Part shown: positions 43,768 to 52,955 of the stretch, piece by piece
How positions within the stretch are numbered: the stretch's first letter is position 1
Layout: every line of letters starts with the position of its first letter
NCBI GenBank assembly: GCA_964594965.1
Contig: CAZQMX010000002.1
Coordinates: 44,306 to 108,305 of the forward strand
Length of the DNA: 64,000 nt
Direction of reading: 5' to 3'
Source of the DNA: an uncultured Candidatus Saccharibacteria bacterium
Lineage (GTDB): Bacteria > Patescibacteriota > Minisyncoccia > Portnoybacterales > UBA2143
The notes under the pieces: model-generated
What the model was told of the DNA's origin: nothing
What the model saw: only the letters and a program-made list of their open reading frames with translations
Databases searched by the model: none
Program-made: the position numbers and the translations under genes

Positions 43768-44028
43768 TTACTGATAAATCCTGTGGGTACCGACTGAATG
43801 AAAATAAATAACACCGTCCCCAGCAAACTCGAATACTATCCTGTATTTATAGCCGACCGAAAAAGACCAAAAGCCTCTAAATTTCCCAGAAAGTTTGTGG
43901 GTCTTTAATTTTTTATCAAAAGGATTTTGACGAAAAATATTTTCTTTCTCTTCCATTAATTTCTTAGCTTTATCGGGTAGCTTCCTGTATTCCCGATAAA
44001 ATTTAGGAGAATATATTATTTTGTCCAT
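43768..44028 (-). CDS. type II toxin-antitoxin toxin, RelE/ParE (YafQ-like) family
   Basis: 86 aa; HKLSGKFRGFWSFSVGYKYRIVFEF..DGVIYFHSVGTHRIY matches the RelE/ParE C-terminal beta-sheet pattern; immediately downstream of a small RHH-like gene. Confidence 0.65.
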   Translation of the reverse strand: MDKIIYSPKFYREYRKLPDKAKKLMEEKENIFRQNPFDKKLKTHKLSGKFRGFWSFSVGYKYRIVFEFAGDGVIYFHSVGTHRIYQ

Positions 44029-44063
44029 TTATTTTCAGCAAGCCCACTCACAAGCTGTATTAA

Positions 44064-44282
44064 TTATCTTAAATCTTTAAAAGACTTTAAAACTTTGCCT
44101 TTTCCATCTAGTATTTCACGATGACTTTCCTCCAATTCAGCCAAAATCTTACTTTCTTCTTCATATTCACGCAAAAGAGAACGAAAGAATTCGCTGACAC
44201 TGGCATATTTGCCCTTTTTGACTTCTTGTTTGACCATCTTTGCCATTTGAGCAGGCAAAGAAATGTTGATAATGTTTCTCAT
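44064..44282 (-). CDS. TA antitoxin, ribbon-helix-helix (ParD/CopG-like)
   Basis: 72 aa; N-terminal NISLPAQMAKMVKQEVKKGKYASVSEFFRSLLREY is RHH-like; upstream of the toxin in the same orientation. Confidence 0.55.
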   Translation of the reverse strand: MRNIINISLPAQMAKMVKQEVKKGKYASVSEFFRSLLREYEEESKILAELEESHREILDGKGKVLKSFKDLR

Positions 44283-44430: not shown

Positions 44431-45762
44431 ATGGGGACGAGTGGGTCAGCTAATGATGAGTGGGTTGAATTGTATAACAGCGCCGGTGAAGAAGTTGATT
44501 TAACCGGCTGGGCTTTGAAAGCGGTTGATGGAATACCGGAAATAGGTTTATCAGGAACAATATCCCCTCAGGGATATTTTTTACTTGAACGAACCGATGA
44601 TACCAGTGCCCCCGATGTTGTGGCTGATTTAATCTATGTTGGCGCTCTGTCCAATACCGGAGAAGAATTAGGGCTCTATGACAGTGGGAATAATTTAATT
44701 GATTCAATTGATGCTTCTTCTGGCTGGGATTTTGGCGATAATTCAACCAAACAAACTATAGAAAAAACTGATTCTGGCTGGCAGACCAGTTTAGAAATTG
44801 GTGGAACGCCCAAAGCAGAAAACAGCAATCAGGAAGAATCAGGAGAATCAACCAGCGACGGAACCCCTTCATTTAAGCCGGCAAGTGATTATCCGCCAAC
44901 TGCCAATGCCGGACCGGATATTACTGCTCTGGTCGGACAGGAAATATTTTTTGACGGCAGTCAGTCATCTGATCCGGACTGGGATAAATTAAATTTTTTC
45001 TGGAATTTTGGCAATGGAGCAACCAGTACCCAGGAAAAAATTACTCACGCCTATGATTATCCCGGTCAATACATTGTTTCTCTTTCTGTTGAAGATGATA
45101 AATTCACCCATATTGATATTGCTCTGATTAATATCTATTCCGAATCGGTTGTGATTAGTGAATTTGACCCTAACAACAACTGGGTTGAATTGTATAATCC
45201 GAAGGAGGAAATTGCTAATTTAACTGGTTGGAAATTAAATGATTTCACTTTTCCGGAAAACACCTTTGTTGCTCCGAATCAATTCCTTGTTTTAAATCAT
45301 CAATCCAATTCCAATTCAATCCAACTTTTTTATCCTGATGGCTCTTTGGCCAGTCAAGTTGATTATTCTGAAAAAAAAGAAGGTTCCTGTATTGCTTTTG
45401 ACGGCAATGACTACTTTTGGACAAAAATTCCGACTCCTTCCGCAACTAATATTATTAGTTCAACCGGTCTGGAAAACGGAAACCAAAAGATTCTGAATAA
45501 TCCGGTCATAAAACAAAGCCGGGAAATTCCTAACCCGGATAATTCAGTTATTAATCTCGCTCAAAGTAGTAATCTTTCTGTTCTCGAGTCGGATGATATG
45601 ATAGAAGATAATCCGTATTCTCAGCAATCAGCTTCTTTATCTCAAACCGCTTCTTCAAGCCAGAAATCCAAATTAATTTTAATCATTTCAATTATCATTT
45701 CCGGTTCTCTTTTAGTCAGTTGGGGCCTGATTTTAATCAAAAACAGGGTCAAAACTCATTGA
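44431..45762 (+). CDS. cell-surface protein: lamin-tail domain - PKD domain - lamin-tail domain - C-terminal TM anchor; N-terminus probably extends upstream
   Basis: LINEIAWMGTSGSANDEWVELYN and SEFDPNNNWVELYNP are LTD signatures. PTANAGPDITALVGQEIFFDGSQSSDPDWDKLNFFWNFGNGAT is PKD-like. C-terminal hydrophobic helix. The in-frame upstream region (from 44299) encodes a hydrophobic signal-like stretch with no ATG. Confidence 0.75.
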   Translation: MGTSGSANDEWVELYNSAGEEVDLTGWALKAVDGIPEIGLSGTISPQGYFLLERTDDTSAPDVVADLIYVGALSNTGEELGLYDSGNNLIDSIDASSGWDFGDNSTKQTIEKTDSGWQTSLEIGGTPKAENSNQEESGESTSDGTPSFKPASDYPPTANAGPDITALVGQEIFFDGSQSSDPDWDKLNFFWNFGNGATSTQEKITHAYDYPGQYIVSLSVEDDKFTHIDIALINIYSESVVISEFDPNNNWVELYNPKEEIANLTGWKLNDFTFPENTFVAPNQFLVLNHQSNSNSIQLFYPDGSLASQVDYSEKKEGSCIAFDGNDYFWTKIPTPSATNIISSTGLENGNQKILNNPVIKQSREIPNPDNSVINLAQSSNLSVLESDDMIEDNPYSQQSASLSQTASSSQKSKLILIISIIISGSLLVSWGLILIKNRVKTH

Positions 45763-45819: not shown

Positions 45820-46362
45820 ATGTCCGGTCATTCAAAATGGTCTTCAATTAAACACAAAAAAGCAATTACCGACGCCAGACGGGGTAAGATTTTTTCTAAA
45901 ATATCCCGTTTGATTAGCGTTGCTGCTAAAGAAAAAGGCGGTGATCCGGAAAGTAATTCTAAATTAAGATCGGCTATTGAACAGGCCCGTCAGGTCAATA
46001 TGCCCAAAAGCAATATTGAGAAAGCGATTAAAAAAGGAACTGGCCAGGTCAAAGGGGCTCAAATGGAAGAAATTATCTATGAGGCCTATGGCCCTTCAGG
46101 CATCGCTTTAATTATTACCGGCATCACTGATAACAAGAACCGGGCAACAGCTGAAATCAGACACATCTTAACCAAATTTGATGGAAAGCTGGCTCAGGTT
46201 GGCAGTGTCCGATATATGTTTAATAAAAAAGAGGAGGACTGGGAACCAAAATATCCTGTTGAAATTGCTGACGAAAAAACAAAAAAAAGACTGGAAAAAC
46301 TTTTTGAATCCCTGGATGAAAATGATGATGTCCAGGAAATCTATTCTAATTTAAAAATGTGA
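45820..46362 (+). CDS. yebC: YebC/PmpR family transcriptional regulator (short form)
   Basis: MSGHSKWSSIKHKKAITDARRGKIFSKISR canonical YebC N-terminus. Confidence 0.8.
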   Translation: MSGHSKWSSIKHKKAITDARRGKIFSKISRLISVAAKEKGGDPESNSKLRSAIEQARQVNMPKSNIEKAIKKGTGQVKGAQMEEIIYEAYGPSGIALIITGITDNKNRATAEIRHILTKFDGKLAQVGSVRYMFNKKEEDWEPKYPVEIADEKTKKRLEKLFESLDENDDVQEIYSNLKM

Positions 46363-47045
46363 CTATCTCTAAGGCAAATAAAATAAATTCGGGAAAGAAG
46401 TATTCCGAGAATTGGAGGAAAAAAGTAAGTAAAGGGTGGTTTAAAAAAGAAGGCATTCCTTGGAATAAAAGCAAAAAGATGCCTATGGAGACAAGGAGAA
46501 AATTAAGTAGAGCCCTTAAGGGACGCAAGGCTTGGAATAAGGGAAAAACAATGCCGGAAGAAGTAAAAAAGAAGTTGAGTGAACTTCTTAAAGGAAAGCG
46601 TCGTTCACCCGAGACAGAATTTAAAAAAGGACAATATAAAGGAGACGGGAACCCAGCCAAAAGAATGGAAATAAGAAGAAAAATAAGTGAAGCCAAAAAA
46701 GGAAAACCACACTTCAATCAAAGAGGAAGAAATCACGGAAACTGGAAAGGCGGGATTACTCCTAAAAACGAAAAAATCAGGAAAACTCTAGAATATAAAT
46801 TATGGAGAGAAGCTGTCTTTGCTAGAGACAATTGGAGTTGTCGAAAATGTAGAAAAAGAGGAAGTAAATTAGCTTCACATCATCTCTATAACTTCGCCGA
46901 TTTCGCCAGATCACGAACCTCGATTGAAAATGGAATTACCCTTTGTGAAAAATGTTATAGAGAATTCCATAAAGTTTATGGCTTAAAGAGGAATACAAAA
47001 GAAAAATTCGAAGAGTTTTTAAGTTTGCCCAATCGTTATAAATAG
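46359..47045 (+). CDS. HNH homing-type endonuclease with NUMOD3 DNA-binding repeats
   Basis: Four to five W/GNKGK...MPEE/TRRK NUMOD3-like repeats, then HNH core CRKCRKRGSKLASHHLYNF...NGITLCEKCYREFH. ATGA overlap with the yebC stop. Confidence 0.75.
   Translation: MTISKANKINSGKKYSENWRKKVSKGWFKKEGIPWNKSKKMPMETRRKLSRALKGRKAWNKGKTMPEEVKKKLSELLKGKRRSPETEFKKGQYKGDGNPAKRMEIRRKISEAKKGKPHFNQRGRNHGNWKGGITPKNEKIRKTLEYKLWREAVFARDNWSCRKCRKRGSKLASHHLYNFADFARSRTSIENGITLCEKCYREFHKVYGLKRNTKEKFEEFLSLPNRYK
46359..47045 (+). mobile_element. free-standing HNH endonuclease gene inserted between yebC and ruvC
   Basis: yebC-ruvC are normally adjacent; an HNH-NUMOD gene sits exactly between them. Confidence 0.5.
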
Positions 47046-47069: not shown

Positions 47070-47546
47070 ATGACTATCTTAGGCGTAGACCCGGGAGTAG
47101 CCCGTGTAGGGTATGGTTTAGTTAAAAAAACATCAAATAATAATTTAAAACTGATTGACTATAATTGTATTGAAACCGATAAAGAATTACCGATTGCCCA
47201 GCGACTTAGCCAGATAGATAAACAATTGAAAAAGATAATCAAAGAAAACAAACCAGAACAGGTAGCTGTCGAAGATATTTTCTTTTTTAAGAATCTTAAA
47301 ACCGTAATTGCTGTTAGTCAGGCCCGGGGTGTTATTCTGGCCAGAGCGGCTAAAATGAGAATTCCTGTTATTGAATACACTCCCCTTCAGATTAAACAGG
47401 CCGTGACAAGTTACGGCCGGGCGGATAAAACCCAGGTTCAAAAAATGGTTAAATTGCTTTTAAAATTAAAACAAATTCCCAAGCCGGATGACGCTGCCGA
47501 CGCGCTGGCAACAGCCATCTGCTGCGCTCATTCTGTTTGTCAATAA
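47070..47546 (+). CDS. ruvC: Holliday junction resolvase RuvC
   Basis: MTILGVDPGVARVGYGLV start and catalytic acidic residues (VEDIFFFKN, DAADALA). Confidence 0.85.
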   Translation: MTILGVDPGVARVGYGLVKKTSNNNLKLIDYNCIETDKELPIAQRLSQIDKQLKKIIKENKPEQVAVEDIFFFKNLKTVIAVSQARGVILARAAKMRIPVIEYTPLQIKQAVTSYGRADKTQVQKMVKLLLKLKQIPKPDDAADALATAICCAHSVCQ

Positions 47547-47547
47547 A

Positions 47548-48210
47548 ATGTCATTTATCAGTCAATATTTAATCAATCAGGGAATGCCTGAGGAAACATT
47601 AATTCTTCTTTTAATGCTGCCAATTGTGGCAACCATTATTGCCTTTGCCCGCCAGGTCATTGGCATTAAGGGCTTTGGCATTTACACCCCTTTAATCATT
47701 TCTTTTGCTTTTTTAGCGACTGGTTTAAGATATGGCCTGGCTCTTTTTCTGATAATTCTCCTGGTCGGGACGATTATGAGGTTAGTTGTTAAAAAATTCC
47801 GCCTTCTCTATCTTCCCCGAATGGCAATTGTTTTAACAGCGGTTGCCGTTGTTGTTATTGCTCTTTTTCCCCTCGGAGCATATTTTGACCGAAATGGTCT
47901 GATTGGCGCTTCGATTCTAGCTATTCTAATTATGACAACCCTGGTTGAAAAATTTATTGTCGCTCAGATTGAAAGGGGTGCTCGGGGAGCAATCCTTTTA
48001 ACAACCGAAACTCTTTTTCTTTCCGTCATTTCCTTCTTTGTTATCAGCTGGATCTGGCTCCAAGGATTTGTCTTAATTTACCCTGCCTGGATTATTCTGG
48101 CTGCTGTTTTAGCCAATATTCTTTTAGGCAAATGGACCGGTCTTCGTTTAACTGAATACTTCCGTTTTAAGGAAGTTATCAAACATGCTGAAATTTCTGG
48201 AAAAAAGTAA
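47548..48210 (+). CDS. 7-TM integral membrane protein (first gene of the ATP-grasp operon)
   Basis: Start at MSFISQYL (the ORF-track start 47488 overlaps ruvC). Seven hydrophobic helices, no soluble domain. 26-nt overlap with the next gene. Confidence 0.55.
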   Translation: MSFISQYLINQGMPEETLILLLMLPIVATIIAFARQVIGIKGFGIYTPLIISFAFLATGLRYGLALFLIILLVGTIMRLVVKKFRLLYLPRMAIVLTAVAVVVIALFPLGAYFDRNGLIGASILAILIMTTLVEKFIVAQIERGARGAILLTTETLFLSVISFFVISWIWLQGFVLIYPAWIILAAVLANILLGKWTGLRLTEYFRFKEVIKHAEISGKK

Positions 48211-49513
48211 ATACGTTCTGGGATTAAATGCCCGCAATCTGACTTATCTCCGGCCCTCCAATAGTTCGAGGGCTGTTCGGATTGCTGATAACAAGCTTTT
48301 AGCCAAGAGGATTTTGAAAAAAGCTGGCTTGCCGGTTTTGGATACTCACGCCACCATTTCTGACTCAAAAGAATTAAGGGAGTTTGACTGGAATTCCTTG
48401 CCGCCAACCTTTGTTTTGAAACCTAATCGGGGTCTGGGCGGTGAAGGCATTATCATTGTTTACGGCAAAAAAAAGAAAGCTCCTTATCCCTGGGTCAGGG
48501 CAGACCGGAGAACGGTTGAAATTGAAGACCTCGAAGATCACACCCAGAATATTCTGGATGGAACCTATTCTTTAACCGGTTTGCCTGATGTTGCCTTTTT
48601 TGAAGAAAGAGTCAAATTAATTAAACTCTTAAAGCCGTATTCTTTTAGAGGAATTCCTGATATCCGCATTATTGTCTATAACTCTGTTCCGGTTATGGCG
48701 GAAATGCGCTTACCAACCCAGGAATCAGGCGGTAAAGCCAATCTTCATTTAGGCGGCATTGGTGTTGGTATTGATATGGGCAATGGTATTACTACAACTG
48801 CTATTCAAAGAGACCGTTTGATTGAATACGCTCCTGGAACCCGACTTCCCCTTTCAGGAATTCATATTCCTGATTGGAAAGAAGTTCTTCGAATGGCAAT
48901 TTACGCCCAGCAGGCAACCCGAATTGGATTCCTCGGCATTGACATTGCTATTGACCGGGATAAGGGACCAATGATCCTGGAATTAAATGTCAGGCCGGGC
49001 CTATCAATCCAGATTGCTAATTTGACTCCTTTGGGAGATCGCCTCCAAAGGGTTAAAGGCCTTAAAATTAAAACTATTAATAAGGGGGTTAAAATTGCCC
49101 AGGATCTTTTTGGCGGTGAAATCGAGGAAGAACTTGAAGAAATCTCTGGCCGGAAAGTAATTGGCATTAACGAACCAATTGAAATTCTGGACAATGATGA
49201 AAACAAACATCCAACCATGGCTAAAATTGATACCGGCGCCTACCGGACAACAATTTGCCAGACCCTGGCCGATAAATTAAATCTGAATAAGATTATTAGC
49301 CACAAGAAAGTCAGAGGAGCATTAGGGATTGAAGAAAGACCGATTATTAACCTCTCTTTTATTTTAGATAAAAGACTAGTCACAACCGAAGCTTTTGTCG
49401 CTGACCGGAGCGAGATGAAATATGATATTATCGTCGGAAGAAAAGATTTGAAAAGGTTTTTGGTTGATCCGGCTAAGAACGTCTTTATGCGGGGGAAAGG
49501 ACGAGTTAGTTAA
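48185..49513 (+). CDS. fusion protein: RimK-related alpha-L-glutamate-ligase-like ATP-grasp domain (N) + retropepsin-like aspartic protease domain (C; RimB/PF05618-like)
   Basis: N-terminus VLGLNARNLTYLRP...IADNKLLAKRILKKAGLPV matches the alpha-L-glutamate ligase-related family pattern (GMN-RN--YI...ADDKLLTK-LA--AG-PVP). C-terminus has KIDTGAYRTTI (D-T-G-A at 49229..49240) plus a second half with IIVGRKDL, typical of retropepsin-like protease. Confidence 0.7.
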   Translation: MLKFLEKSKYVLGLNARNLTYLRPSNSSRAVRIADNKLLAKRILKKAGLPVLDTHATISDSKELREFDWNSLPPTFVLKPNRGLGGEGIIIVYGKKKKAPYPWVRADRRTVEIEDLEDHTQNILDGTYSLTGLPDVAFFEERVKLIKLLKPYSFRGIPDIRIIVYNSVPVMAEMRLPTQESGGKANLHLGGIGVGIDMGNGITTTAIQRDRLIEYAPGTRLPLSGIHIPDWKEVLRMAIYAQQATRIGFLGIDIAIDRDKGPMILELNVRPGLSIQIANLTPLGDRLQRVKGLKIKTINKGVKIAQDLFGGEIEEELEEISGRKVIGINEPIEILDNDENKHPTMAKIDTGAYRTTICQTLADKLNLNKIISHKKVRGALGIEERPIINLSFILDKRLVTTEAFVADRSEMKYDIIVGRKDLKRFLVDPAKNVFMRGKGRVS

Positions 49514-49515
49514 TT

Positions 49516-51009
49516 ATGCTTATCAAAGACCTAGCCTCTCTAAAAGAATACTTTTCTCAGATTAAAACTCCGATATTTGGCGCCGGGGTCTATGTTTTTA
49601 ACCGGCTTGGCCTGGAAGATATCTATTCCAATTACCGGATTCTGGCCCTGCGCTATAGTTTGGATACCAAACTAATTGAAAAAGGCATTAAGGTTCTGTC
49701 TTTGGAAAAGGGAATGGGAACCAGGCATATCAGAGAGCCAAGAAATGCCACCACCGTTATTAGCCATTCTAAAACAAAAGAATACCTTAAGAAATTCCAA
49801 AATCCGGCTATTCTGGTTTATCAGCCGTCTAAAAAAATGGAAGAGGTTTGTCAGGAAAATGGATGGGAATTACTTAACAATCCGACAAGTTTTGGCAAAG
49901 ATCTATTGGAAAACAAAATCAAATTCAGAAGAATCTTAAAAGAATTAGGTATTGCTGTTCCGCCCGGAAAAATTGCTTCAGCTTCCAAACTTCATTACGG
50001 GCATTTGATTAATAGGTATGGGTTGCCTTTTGTTATCCAGCATCCAACCAAGGGCGGCGGCAAAGGAACTTTTTTCATCAACAACAAAGAAGATTTTGAC
50101 CAGGCCTACAAGAAACTTCATAAGAAATGGGACGAAGATAATGAAAAAGAAGTCACTCCGCCGGATGAAGTTATTGTTGCCCAGTTTATCCAGGGTTCTT
50201 CCCCTTCAATTACCGCCTGCGTTACAAAACATGGCGTTCTTTCAACCAATCTTCAGTATCAGATTCTTGATGCTCCGAAGTTATATAATCCGGAAAAGGG
50301 TTCTGGTCTTTTCTGCGGTCATGACTGGACAAGTTCCAGGTTTTCTGATTCAATCAATTACCAGGCCTACGAAGCTGTTGAAAAAATCGGCCAGTATTTC
50401 AAAGAGCTGGGCTACAAGGGAATTTTCGGCTTAGATTTTGTCCTTGACGAAAAAAAAGAAAAACTCTACATTGTTGAATGTAATCCCCGCTTTCTTGGTT
50501 CTTACCCGGTTATTAACATGGCTCAGTTAATAAACAACGAGCCGCCAATTCTGGCCTTTCATGTTTTGGAGTTTTTAGGAAATGATTACCAGATTGATAA
50601 AAATGAAATTAATTACCAAATGCGAAGAGAAAAAATCGGCGCTCAGATGATTTTGCATAATTTAACAACCAAATGGGCCAGAAATCACAAGCAAATTAAG
50701 GCCGGGGTTTACAAATTAAGGAAAAACAAATTAAAATACATCCGGGAGGGGTATGATTTAAAGCATTTAAGAGAAAAGGAAGAATTTCTTTTAGCTGACG
50801 GGGTTTCATTAAAACATTCCCATTTTAGTCCTAATCGCCGGCTTTGCCGGATCCTGACTCTTAATCAATGCCTTGCTGATGATTACAAGAATCTTAATCC
50901 CTGGGCAAAGCAGGTATCTGAAACAGTCTATTCTGCCTTTGAAATGAAACCAATCAAGTTTATTAAACTCAAAAAATTCTTTTTTCCTAATCTTTTAGCT
51001 AAAGGTTAG
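49516..51009 (+). CDS. ATP-grasp superfamily ligase with N-terminal pre-ATP-grasp domain (uncharacterized subfamily)
   Basis: KIKFRRILKELGIAVPPGKI...GLPFVIQHPTKGGGKGTFFINNKEDFDQAYKKL...VIVAQFIQG...GIFGLDFVLDEKKEKLYIVECNPRF. 2-nt gap from the upstream gene. Confidence 0.6.
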   Translation: MLIKDLASLKEYFSQIKTPIFGAGVYVFNRLGLEDIYSNYRILALRYSLDTKLIEKGIKVLSLEKGMGTRHIREPRNATTVISHSKTKEYLKKFQNPAILVYQPSKKMEEVCQENGWELLNNPTSFGKDLLENKIKFRRILKELGIAVPPGKIASASKLHYGHLINRYGLPFVIQHPTKGGGKGTFFINNKEDFDQAYKKLHKKWDEDNEKEVTPPDEVIVAQFIQGSSPSITACVTKHGVLSTNLQYQILDAPKLYNPEKGSGLFCGHDWTSSRFSDSINYQAYEAVEKIGQYFKELGYKGIFGLDFVLDEKKEKLYIVECNPRFLGSYPVINMAQLINNEPPILAFHVLEFLGNDYQIDKNEINYQMRREKIGAQMILHNLTTKWARNHKQIKAGVYKLRKNKLKYIREGYDLKHLREKEEFLLADGVSLKHSHFSPNRRLCRILTLNQCLADDYKNLNPWAKQVSETVYSAFEMKPIKFIKLKKFFFPNLLAKG

Positions 51010-51014
51010 GCTCC

Positions 51015-52043
51015 ATGATTACATACTTTAATACAAAAAAAGAGATTAATCTCAAAGAATTTATCGGCCGGGGGGGTCGTTTTTTAATTCTGCATTTAAG
51101 GGAACTTAAAAAAAGGAATATTGATTGTCAGGTTCTTGTCCAGAAAAGAAAAGACAGGGATGATGTTCTTTTCTTGAAAATTAGAAAAGAAGGCAAGACC
51201 AGATGGCTTTCTCCTCAAAAAGGATATTTCAATACCAAGCAAAGCTGCGAACTGGCCCTTCACAAAGACCTGACTTACAAGATTCTTGAATCAGTTAATT
51301 TGCCTGTTCCTCAAAACTACAAGATTGAAAAAATCAGCCAATTAAAGAAAATAGATTTGTCTTATCCGGTTGTGGTTAAACCAACTGACCAGGCCAAGGG
51401 CAAAGGTGTCCTAATTGGCATTAAAGACAGGGAAGAATTGAAAAAATCAGTTAAAAGACTGCTTAAAAAATATTCTTCTTTGATTGTTGAAGAATACATT
51501 CCGGGAAATGATTATCGTCTTTTAATTCTGGATAAAAAACTCCTGGGAGCGATAAAAAGAACGCCGCCAAAAATTAAAGCTGATGGAAAAAGAACCATCC
51601 GGGAATTAATCAGAAAGGAAAACAAAAAAAGATATGATAGGCCAATTGCCTTTAAGCCCTACTCCAAAACACTGGAAATTGATTTAGAAGTTAAGAGATG
51701 CTTAAGAGAGCAAGGTTATTCCCTTAATTCAATTCCTAAAAAGGATGAAAAAATTATTGTCAGGAGAAATACTAATTTCTCGAGCGGTGGAGAAACATTA
51801 GATGTGACTAAAAAAGTTCATCCGGAGAATATTAAAATCGCCAAAAAGGCGATTAAATCTCTCGGACTTAAATTCGGCGGAGTTGATTTCGTTGCTGAAA
51901 AAATATCAGAGCCGATTAGCCGGAACAATGGTCGGATTGTTGAAATTAACGGTATTCCTGGAATTTGGATACATCATTTTCCAAATCACGGCCAAAGAAG
52001 AAACATTGCCAAGAAAATTATTGATTACTTGTTTGAAAACTAA
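51015..52043 (+). CDS. stand-alone cyanophycin-synthetase-N-domain-like / RimK-like ATP-grasp ligase
   Basis: YPVVVKPTDQAKGKGVLIGI...DYRLLILDKKLLGAIKRTPPKIKADGKRTIRELI...NFSSGGETLDVTKKVHPENIKIAKKAIKSLGLKFGGVDFV closely parallels the CphA N-terminal ATP-grasp motifs (DYRLLVV..KVVAA..RxPAxVxGDG..TIxELI ... NLSTGGxAxDVTDxVHPxN...GLDIAGIDF). Confidence 0.7.
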   Translation: MITYFNTKKEINLKEFIGRGGRFLILHLRELKKRNIDCQVLVQKRKDRDDVLFLKIRKEGKTRWLSPQKGYFNTKQSCELALHKDLTYKILESVNLPVPQNYKIEKISQLKKIDLSYPVVVKPTDQAKGKGVLIGIKDREELKKSVKRLLKKYSSLIVEEYIPGNDYRLLILDKKLLGAIKRTPPKIKADGKRTIRELIRKENKKRYDRPIAFKPYSKTLEIDLEVKRCLREQGYSLNSIPKKDEKIIVRRNTNFSSGGETLDVTKKVHPENIKIAKKAIKSLGLKFGGVDFVAEKISEPISRNNGRIVEINGIPGIWIHHFPNHGQRRNIAKKIIDYLFEN

Positions 52044-52063: not shown

Positions 52064-52237
52064 TTAGGCCTTGTGAAAAAGGATCGCCAGTATGAAAGAA
52101 ACCACTGCGGCAAGAGCGTAGATTAATATCCCGGATGAATTGCCGTTAGCTATGACATGTCCGGAAATTGCCCCTACCCAGATGATTCCAAGAGTAAGCC
52201 AAAACATTGTAAAAAACTTACTAGTTTTTTTATTCAT
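52064..52237 (-). CDS. possible small 2-TM membrane protein (57 aa), below ORF-track threshold
   Basis: Reverse-strand ATG at 52237 to TAA at 52064: MNKKTSKFFTMFWLTLGIIWVGAISGHVIANGNSSGILIYALAAVVSFILAILFHKA. Confidence 0.25.
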   Translation of the reverse strand: MNKKTSKFFTMFWLTLGIIWVGAISGHVIANGNSSGILIYALAAVVSFILAILFHKA

Positions 52238-52294: not shown

Positions 52295-52328
52295 AACGGC
52301 AGACCTGTTTAAGTCTGCCGTCTTTTTA
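52295..52328. terminator. bidirectional rho-independent terminator (acggcagac-ctgtttaa-gtctgccgt + ttttta)
   Basis: 9-bp GC-rich stem with U-tail on + strand and A-run upstream; sits between the convergent ATP-grasp operon and the 52335..52955 gene. Confidence 0.65.
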
Positions 52329-52334
52329 GATGAG

Positions 52335-52955
52335 TTAGTCAGGAACATTGCAATACGCGTAAGCAGCGCTTACAGCCTCCTGTATTTCTTCGAGACGCTC
52401 CTTTACCACGCGCCTCTTGGCCTCTTTTAACCTGGCGAGGAAAAAATCAGTCCAGAATTCGGGCATAGACGTTAGTTCGTCTTTATGGCGACCTGGCTCC
52501 AAGAGATCGAACGGATTACGGGTCGTGCCACCCCCTCCCCATAAATGGACTACATTGGCTTTGCCATCTTTTGTCACTAACGGCATTCCATTTTCATCGT
52601 ATTCCGGCAGAGTTGTAATCTGGACCCAAATCCGATAAGGAATACTAAAGACTTCTGTTGTATCAAAGACAATCAGAGAAACATTGGCTAATAAGGGTAA
52701 ATCTATGGACTCTAATCCAACAAGGACTGGCCAGATAAAGCTTTCTTCAAATAAAACAGTTCCTTTTTCATCGGTCGTTTTGTACTCTGCCATCTTTTCA
52801 CTATCAAACAGAGCAGTTGGAACCTGAGGATTCTGCCGAAGCGGCAAATGATTATGATCGGTATAAAACGCTATTTTCATGGTGTCTTCCCTCCTTTTCG
52901 GTATTCTGATTTGAAGAACATTAATTTGAGACAAGGATACAATAATGTTTGTCAA
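52335..52955 (-). CDS. hypothetical protein, compositionally atypical (higher GC); probable start MKIAFYTDHNHL (~52880)
   Basis: Clear ORF with markedly higher G+C than surrounding genes; no recognisable motif. Confidence 0.4.
   Translation of the reverse strand: MTNIIVSLSQINVLQIRIPKRREDTMKIAFYTDHNHLPLRQNPQVPTALFDSEKMAEYKTTDEKGTVLFEESFIWPVLVGLESIDLPLLANVSLIVFDTTEVFSIPYRIWVQITTLPEYDENGMPLVTKDGKANVVHLWGGGGTTRNPFDLLEPGRHKDELTSMPEFWTDFFLARLKEAKRRVVKERLEEIQEAVSAAYAYCNVPD

Follow-up and report, generated by a model that had tools for sequence, protein, structure and literature searches.

A stand-alone CphA-type G domain in an Rlo-like multi-ligase cassette of Patescibacteria, with a proposed role in single amino acid addition

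Four closely spaced genes in a 64-kb stretch of DNA from an uncultured member of the Patescibacteria, or candidate phyla radiation (CPR), end with a gene for a 342-amino acid (aa) ATP-grasp protein, which is the subject of this analysis (contig CAZQMX010000002.1; the whole 64-kb stretch is called the window below, and positions are counted from its first letter). In order, the genes encode an RloB-like membrane protein, an RloC-like ligase fused to a retropepsin-like peptidase, a 497-aa ATP-grasp protein, and the 342-aa protein (Table 1), with junctions of -26, +2, and +5 nt. The next genes downstream lie on the opposite strand and are unrelated. A first-pass annotation of the window had read the last gene as a stand-alone ATP-grasp of the cyanophycin synthetase (CphA) type, belonging to the operon upstream and, with an unrelated and convergent ORF next to it, not truncated, and on these points we agree: the open reading frame (ORF) was confirmed, its best matches are CphA proteins, of which only the G domain is aligned, the intergenic gaps are 2 and 5 nt, and the gene order is kept in every relative examined.

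Among the NCBIfam models, the closest to the 342-aa protein is cyanophycin synthetase (TIGR02068, E 1.3e-79), followed by the GshAB ATP-grasp module (E 3.5e-54) and NAGGN synthetase (E 2.5e-43), with RimK (E 1.7e-15), Ddl, and GshB far weaker. Thus, the comparison with RimK and GshB models that had been proposed as a check on the CphA assignment came out in its favor. The match to TIGR02068 covers only residues 77-341, aligned with model positions 207-472 of 862, and the equivalog score of 268.2 bits lies below the curated cutoff of 850 bits. Pfam gave generic ATP-grasp families only, with ATP-grasp_3, RimK, and GSH-S_ATP above cutoff. A sequence search of solved structures placed CphA1 of three species on top (E about 1e-45, about 40% identity), with CphA2 (E 1.5e-40) and then GshF as the next matches. 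When the profile of the 342-aa family was compared by hhalign with that of 13 full-length CphA1 sequences, family columns 23-343 were aligned with CphA1 165-478 (probability 100%, E 2e-68). The G domain of TeCphA1 spans residues 162-487 (PMC9427784) and, judged by this alignment, is shared in full. CphA1 is a three-domain protein (N, G, and M; about 850-900 aa), not the two-domain enzyme of the first-pass annotation, and the matching part is the G domain rather than the "N domain" named there.

Structure prediction led to the same assignment. The AlphaFold2 model of the 342-aa protein was confident (predicted local distance difference test score, pLDDT, 92; predicted template modeling score, pTM, 0.89), and its top Foldseek match in the PDB was TeCphA1 (E 7e-29, TMq about 0.75, about 331 columns). 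SuCphA1, CphA2 (E 3e-27), and GshF were the further best matches, and those to RimK, LysX, and Ddl were many orders of magnitude weaker. Queried by tblastn with N- and M-domain sequences from five CphA1 proteins, the 64-kb window gave no match (best E 0.15), and phmmer searches of the 88 window ORFs of at least 80 aa detected neither a match to a Mur ligase query nor further paralogs of the three cassette ATP-grasp proteins. Thus, the lack of a Mur-ligase (M) domain noted in the first-pass annotation was borne out, but the N domain is absent as well. The 342-aa protein has the fold, nucleotide-binding lysines, and Mg-binding acidic residues of the ATP-grasp superfamily, and is a complete, isolated CphA-type G (ATP-grasp) domain. 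It stands outside the CphA1 equivalog, from which it departs in architecture, score, and diagnostic residues alike.

Residues of the family were numbered from a printed alignment to TeCphA1 and interpreted with the functional assignments of Miyakawa et al. 2022 (PMC9427784). The catalytic set of the CphA1 G domain is intact: K84, K122, R168, D291, and E310 are invariant, and, S256 excepted, the conserved residues of Table 1 vary little or not at all among 14-21 family members (47-99% identical to the window protein). CphA1 is told apart from GshF by His267, Glu215, and Arg458, in place of which GshF has Tyr/Phe, Leu, and Met/Tyr, respectively, and TeCphA1 requires both Arg458 and His267 (PMC9427784). 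In the 342-aa family, positions 267 and 458 are both non-CphA-like. The "near-canonical" CphA motifs of the first-pass annotation are therefore present as far as the catalytic, ATP, and Mg residues go, but not at two of the three diagnostic positions. Arg at 458 is kept in full-length CphA1, in CphA2-length matches (about 610-670 aa), which differ from the 342-aa family in this respect, and in some other stand-alone proteins (P0125, P0084). As a control on the mapping, the GshF-type 811-aa ORF of Metabacillus (L013) has Leu, Tyr, and Tyr at the diagnostic positions, within the published GshF ranges. The same ORF also carries the RxNxNxSxGG loop and the equivalents of R182, N254, and S256; the loop is therefore no indicator of aspartate, and we rejected all four features as aspartate markers.

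Table 1. Coordinates of cassette features in the window, and residues of the 342-aa protein aligned with functional residues of TeCphA1
Feature	Position	Strand	Remarks
RloB-like 7TM membrane protein (PF14402, 7TM_transglut)	47548..48210	+	PF14402 E 1.5e-28
442-aa RloC-like ATP-grasp (PF14397, ATPgrasp_ST) with C-terminal RimB/RloA-type retropepsin-like peptidase	48185..49513	+	
497-aa three-domain ATP-grasp, biotin-carboxylase/PurK-like fold	49516..51009	+	
C-terminal tail of the 497-aa protein (...LAKG)			peptide ...KKFFFPNLLAKG
342-aa stand-alone CphA-G-domain-like ATP-grasp ligase	51015..52043	+	ATG-to-stop ORF, 342 codons
57-aa ORF, two hydrophobic helices	~52064-52237	-	gap after the 342-aa gene
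Candidate terminator: G+C-rich hairpin of 9 pairs, then T-run	52296..52321	+	convergent gap, about 250 nt downstream of the cassette
TeCphA1 Lys220 (ATP)	K84		conserved
TeCphA1 Lys261 (ATP)	K122		conserved
TeCphA1 Arg309 (acyl-phosphate and oxyanion)	R168		conserved
TeCphA1 Asp431, Glu450, Asn452 (Mg site)	D291, E310, N312		conserved
TeCphA1 Arg323 (beta-carboxylate of substrate Asp)	R182		conserved
TeCphA1 Asn394 (beta-carboxylate of substrate Asp)	N254		conserved
TeCphA1 Ser396 (Asp-pocket lining)	S256		mostly Ser (also A/T/F)
TeCphA1 His267 (P-loop, catalytically critical)			variable, K/Q/R/H/M/G in the 342-aa family
TeCphA1 Glu215 (binding of primer terminal Arg side chain)			E/D/N/S, acidic in most members
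TeCphA1 Arg458 (alpha-carboxylate of incoming Asp)	W318		invariant Trp

The 342-aa protein belongs to a small family. A word-indexed search of 5.8 billion proteins returned 18 clusters of 321-344 aa with 47-99% identity, one of them labeled Candidatus Nealsonbacteria and several named "cyanophycin synthetase" by their sources, and an exhaustive HMMER search of 1.84 billion representatives made few additions (P0033, P0036, and two fragments). When 185,579 species-representative genomes were scanned, close relatives were present in only five, all of them CPR/Patescibacteria metagenome-assembled genomes. In a neighbor-joining tree of 210 G-like domains, the family forms a clade of 21 proteins of 321-349 aa (bootstrap 98). 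Because all of the about 20 homolog clusters fall within this length range, the window gene is not a truncated one, and sequence comparison marks it as a member of a real, conserved family, with purifying conservation across the clade. Short stand-alone G-like proteins are not rare in general, accounting for about 45 of the 150 best HMMER representatives (269-419 aa). Many of the best HMMER matches were giant proteins, reaching about 2,400 aa, in which two or three G-like ATP-grasp domains follow one another as multi-module "assembly lines." A stretch of about 8.5 kb in Halomonas heilongjiangensis (L014, 8001-16506) holds five CphA-G-like matches in a row.

The gene neighborhood was compared in about 20 loci, three of which were sampled for absence of the 342-type gene. 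The gene directly follows the 497-type gene in 11 of 11 contexts, including L009 and L021, and the complete four-gene order is kept in eight of them (L001, L003-L008, and L010). The reverse does not hold: the 497-type protein is far commoner, with at least 325 clusters of 54-82% identity annotated as "Patescibacteria," "Paceibacterota," or "Spechtbacteria," and three cassettes (L024-L026) have no G-like gene within 7 kb. The 497-type protein of one of these (L024) is 68% identical to that of the window, as close as in genomes that carry the 342-type gene. Since such close-relative cassettes lack it, the 342-aa gene is an optional fourth module. The 497-type protein also has an unusual end. In 38 of 38 sequences (the window protein and 37 aligned homologs, 55-82% identity), the C-terminus reads ...[FL][LI][AVS]KG, with K496 and G497 invariant, and residues 484-497 of the AlphaFold2 model have pLDDT <50 and are predicted to be disordered. 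A conserved, free C-terminus amid ligases and peptidases that would extend and trim C-termini suggests an acceptor or docking tail. For the 497-aa model, Foldseek found only a generic biotin-carboxylase/PurK/PurT-like fold (TM-score about 0.55, 11-15% identity), which left unsupported the idea that the 497-aa protein is an L-amino-acid ligase making a starter dipeptide. The C-terminus of the 7TM protein was also considered as a conserved acceptor and set aside, its extreme end being variable.

The first two genes tie the cassette to the Rlo system, in that a 7TM_transglut membrane protein adjoins an ATPgrasp_ST ligase. The membrane protein, which probably starts at M21 of the ORF at 47488 (as judged from an ortholog alignment), consists of the transmembrane part only, matching positions 312-507 of the 508-position RloB model, and has no transglutaminase or PKD ectodomain. 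The 442-aa protein matches PF14397 with an E-value of 2e-62 and TIGR02291 with 257 bits, below the cutoff of 314 bits, and its retropepsin-like domain has the DTG motif at residue 349. Sequence searches of the PDB with the 442-aa and 497-aa proteins gave weak generic matches only. The cassette thus lacks two features of Rlo: its 7TM protein has no inactive, periplasmic transglutaminase domain such as RloB carries, and its retropepsin is part of the ligase protein instead of being secreted with a signal peptide as RloA.

The cassette has a conserved place beside the replication origin and genes for penicillin-binding proteins (PBPs). Downstream of the window cassette, hydrolase, lycopene-cyclase-like, NAPRTase, and MPG genes stand in place of the tyrS-PBP1-dnaN-dnaA genes of its relatives, and the 342-aa gene stays with the cassette despite this change. 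The 57-aa ORF in the convergent gap was also called by independent gene callers on two metagenome contigs (L027, L028) and has no family match on record; neither Pfam nor NCBIfam has a match for the opposite-strand ORF ending at 52335 (181-206 aa). None of the scanned cassette neighbors was recognized as a gene of cyanophycin metabolism, although no search was aimed at cyanophycinase or isoaspartyl dipeptidase. Upstream, a gene for an LTD-PKD-LTD protein with a C-terminal hydrophobic helix (44431-45762, + strand) keeps its position in most relatives examined (ruvB, LTD/PKD, yebC, ruvC, 7TM). The PKD part of the window protein is 34% identical over 94 aa to the PKD domain fused to 7TM elsewhere. 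It could be a split ectodomain or reflect mere synteny; we did not count it as part of the cassette, the likeness being at the generic-domain level only. An ORF with NUMOD3 and HNH motifs (46359-47045, + strand), apparently a homing-endonuclease insertion, sits between yebC and ruvC with a 4-nt overlap at the yebC stop; yebC and ruvC are adjacent in six relatives (L001, L003, L004, and L024-L026). A gene pair for a YafQ/ParE-like toxin and an RHH antitoxin (43768-44282, - strand) keeps its position in L001 and L024.

Related arrangements occur in distant CPR lineages. Stand-alone G-like proteins with 33-40% identity to the window protein, one labeled Beckwithbacteria, lie at the end of cassettes headed by 7TM_transglut. 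In five of these (L012, L019, L020, L022, and L023), one to three CphA-G-like paralogs follow 7TM_transglut and ATPgrasp_ST; in L019, L020, and L022, a PKD ectodomain is fused to the N-terminus of 7TM_transglut. The ATPgrasp_ST ligases are fused to retropepsin and/or MATCAP, and a retropepsin-like and/or MATCAP part is present in most of the distant cassettes. All-against-all BLAST revealed that the G-like paralogs within a cassette are mutually diverged (30-42% identity) and that cassettes with two or three of them have no 497-type gene. Thus, the CPR cassette is a conserved core with a variable set of ligases and C-terminus-directed peptidases. One locus (L019, GCA_964344485.1, 1-14200) encodes PKD-7TM, ATPgrasp_ST-retropepsin, two G-like paralogs, a RimK-like ligase, and two TTL-like ligases. 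It also has genes for a separate 427-aa Mur ligase, FemAB, CofD, and LytR-CpsA-Psr, and ruvA and xseA/xseB are interspersed among all of these. This gene mix hints at a connection between the cassette system and the cell wall.

With about even confidence, we propose that the 342-aa protein is an accessory ligase that adds a single amino acid to a C-terminal carboxylate, as the optional last step of the CPR multi-ligase cassette. It would be an active, stand-alone carboxylate-amine ligase of the clade comprising CphA-G, GshF, and NAGGN synthetase, holding Mg-ATP between core and lid via K84, K122, D291, E310, and N312. The terminal alpha-carboxylate of a peptide-like acceptor would be phosphorylated, with R168 stabilizing the acyl-phosphate, and one amino acid, placed by the G-omega loop (R250-x-N252-x-N254-F-S256-x-GG) and R182, would be joined to it. 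Because the N and M domains are missing and Trp replaces Arg458, we infer a GshF-style enzyme rather than a cyanophycin or poly-Asp polymerase. One addition per substrate is likewise suggested by the unconserved P-loop His and by the several diverged paralogs in other lineages. The iterative Asp/Glu backbone extension put forward in the first-pass annotation is disfavored by these observations and by the optional nature of the gene, and the one to three diverged paralogs of other lineages fit stepwise single additions better than a homopolymerase. The 342-aa enzyme would act jointly with, or directly after, the ~500-aa ATP-grasp whose gene lies 5 nt upstream; the two belong to a CPR-specific extension of an RloB/RloC-type cassette (7TM and ATPgrasp_ST ligase-retropepsin). 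What the cassette makes would be a peptide tail or a short non-ribosomal peptide; its handling would take place at the membrane, the peptidase would trim it, and the extra ligases would diversify what the core system makes. In fold and clade the ligase is of a known kind, with a stand-alone architecture that is new and a specificity pocket that is altered, and it would serve as an accessory module of an uncharacterized pathway.

Several observations weigh against this proposal. Conserved R182, N254, and S256, with the mostly acidic equivalent of Glu215, remain compatible with an incoming Asp and a basic acceptor side chain. At L009, a 498-aa and 340-aa pair has no 7TM or ATPgrasp_ST genes within 8 kb, so the pair may function without the membrane system. 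Just upstream of it, at 2276-4104 of L009, are a CofD-like gene and two genes for M14 zinc carboxypeptidases in tandem. Origin-proximal synteny in one lineage could explain part of the co-occurrence within the cassette, although such regional synteny inflates the linkage to 7TM and ATPgrasp_ST within a lineage and not the linkage in distant lineages. Finally, the phylogenetic placement proposed in the first-pass annotation succeeded only in part: the 21-member clade is well supported, but its deep position relative to CphA1, CphA2, and other stand-alone proteins is not (bootstrap <10).

Among other explanations, the cassette may be a protein-tailing system of the RimK/RimB or TTL/MATCAP type, in which the ligases extend a putative protein C-terminus, possibly the ...LAKG tail of the 497-aa protein, with the 342-aa enzyme adding the last residue and the retropepsin, MATCAP, and M14 peptidases as erasers. 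Such a system would account for the invariable, disordered end of the 497-type protein and for the recurrence of the ligases with C-terminus-directed or RimB-like peptidases (the retropepsin fusion, MATCAP fusions or neighbors, and the M14 pair of L009), and C-terminal carboxylates are where CphA-G, GshF, and RimK all act (PMC9427784, PMC12239564). However, genomes without the 342-type gene conserve the tail just as well, and no conserved C-terminus is found in cassettes that have CphA-G-like paralogs but no 497-type gene; we consider this explanation unlikely. A slightly less likely one is that the 497-aa and 342-aa proteins form a self-contained, two-step route to a soluble small peptide, such as an NAGGN-type compatible solute or a glutathione-like compound, independent of the 7TM and RloC-like genes. 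The isolated pair at L009 fits this idea, as do the bulky, non-basic residue at position 458 (Trp, with Met/Tyr in GshF, versus Arg in CphA1) and the products of the nearest characterized relatives after CphA1 and CphA2, which are a tripeptide for GshF and a dipeptide derivative for NAGGN synthetase. Yet the pair is part of the cassette in 9 of 11 contexts, where genes overlap or nearly touch one another, distant CPR CphA-G-like paralogs are again tied to 7TM_transglut and ATPgrasp_ST, and the 497-type gene mostly occurs without the 342-type gene. Moreover, no glutamate-cysteine ligase was found in the 342-aa protein or the examined cassette neighbors, and no GNAT partner in the examined surroundings of the cassette.

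A true cyanophycin-like or poly-Asp/Glu polymerase, with another cassette ATP-grasp perhaps replacing the M domain for side chains, seems very improbable to us. In its favor are the observations that CphA1 and CphA2 G domains are the closest sequence and fold matches, that the substrate-binding equivalents of Arg323, Asn394, and Ser396 are conserved and that of Glu215 mostly acidic, and that CphA2 polymerizes beta-Asp-Arg dipeptides by its G domain alone (PMC10273328); a separate Mur-ligase gene also lies near the G-like paralogs of one distant CPR locus (L019). These are outweighed by the absence of both partner domains from the window, by the loss of two residues that TeCphA1 requires, and by the presence of the R/N/S loop motif in a GshF-type protein. 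In addition, the gene is dispensable in sister genomes, and the paralog pattern points to step-specific specificities. That the protein is an inactive remnant, or a structural or regulatory paralog devoid of ligase activity, is scarcely credible given its invariant ATP, Mg, and catalytic residues, an intact frame of 321-349 aa in about 21 clusters, and a confidently predicted fold, even though the gene is optional among close relatives and its protein is less conserved than that of its neighbor (about 50% versus about 68% identity in the same genome pairs).

A bolder reading, which we regard as quite improbable, is that the cassette is a bacterial C-terminal tail code, with the ...LAKG-COOH tail of the ~500-aa protein, or another carrier, extended residue by residue by the cassette ligases. 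The 342-aa enzyme would then write the last residue in those lineages that have it, fused retropepsin, MATCAP, or M14 peptidases would erase the tail, and this carrier- or tubulin-like ligase/peptidase cycle would control the 7TM envelope protein in CPR bacteria. If true, it would give a first biochemical handle on the uncharacterized RloB/RloC system.

These findings correct the annotation of the family and of related stand-alone proteins, which are labeled "cyanophycin synthetase" or "synthase" in their sources; because two CphA domains and key specificity residues are missing, nitrogen storage deduced from this label in CPR genomes would be wrong. They also reveal a modular, multi-ATP-grasp cassette across the Patescibacteria, with a core of 7TM and RloC-like ligase/peptidase, variable extra ligases, and carboxypeptidases. 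A conserved, ATP-costly pathway in minimal genomes is likely to be important. In Pseudomonas, antibiotic tolerance, biofilm, and cell shape are all influenced by the Rlo system, which has no known biochemistry; the simpler, fused CPR versions, and the fact that some genomes carry the 342-aa gene and others do not, give practicable access to Rlo chemistry. Isolated G domains may also serve as starting points for peptide-ligase engineering. An isolated G domain by itself will be no great surprise to specialists, but the modular multi-ligase cassette merits experiments. Our literature search found no description of stand-alone G-domain proteins or of the CPR cassette.

The closest known system is the G domain of CphA1 (PDB 7WAE, 7LG5, 7LGN), with which the 342-aa protein shares the Gcore, Glid, and G-omega modules and 36-41% identity over the whole domain, as well as the ATP lysines, Mg ligands, and equivalents of Arg309, Arg323, Asn394, and Ser396. 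Unlike CphA1, it lacks the N (1-161) and M (488-876) domains, and its gene lies in an Rlo-like multi-ligase cassette. With each cycle the CphA1 G domain attaches a single Asp, and binding of the primer requires the Arg side chains (PMC9427784). CphA2 (PDB 7TA5, 8FXH) resembles the 342-aa protein in G-domain-only catalysis, but its about 610-670 aa still include the N domain together with a vestigial M domain.

GshF, which adds Gly to gamma-Glu-Cys (PMC9427784), has in its C-terminal GshF/GshAB module (PRK02471; PDB 3LN6, 3LN7) a single-amino-acid ligase of about 290 residues that shares with the 342-aa family the RxNxNxSxGG loop and a bulky, non-basic residue at the Arg458 equivalent. It differs in its fused glutamate-cysteine ligase domain, in Leu at 215 and Tyr/Phe in the P-loop, and in being less similar to the 342-aa protein than CphA is. 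The ATP-grasp module of NAGGN synthetase (TIGR03103) belongs to the same clade and makes a single peptide bond, again on a C-terminal carboxylate. As its name implies, the enzyme joins Gln to N-acetyl-Gln, and its extra N-terminal region is a GNAT domain. The ~560-580 aa matches in our set, assigned to the NAGGN type by length only, have Ser in place of N254 and Tyr at 318.

As a system, the cassette is most like RloABC of Pseudomonas aeruginosa and RimK/RimB, with which it shares a core of 7TM_transglut, an ATPgrasp_ST (TIGR02291-like) ligase, and a retropepsin-like peptidase. The CPR version differs in having no transglutaminase ectodomain, in fusing the peptidase to a cytoplasmic ligase rather than secreting it, and in adding one to four ATP-grasp ligases, including the CphA-G-like one; none of these differences is described for the Rlo or Rim systems. 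In Pseudomonas, deletions of rloB and rloC suppress the defects of mutants without Rlo proteases (PMC12239564), which fits the idea that RloB and RloC make something that the peptidases must process.

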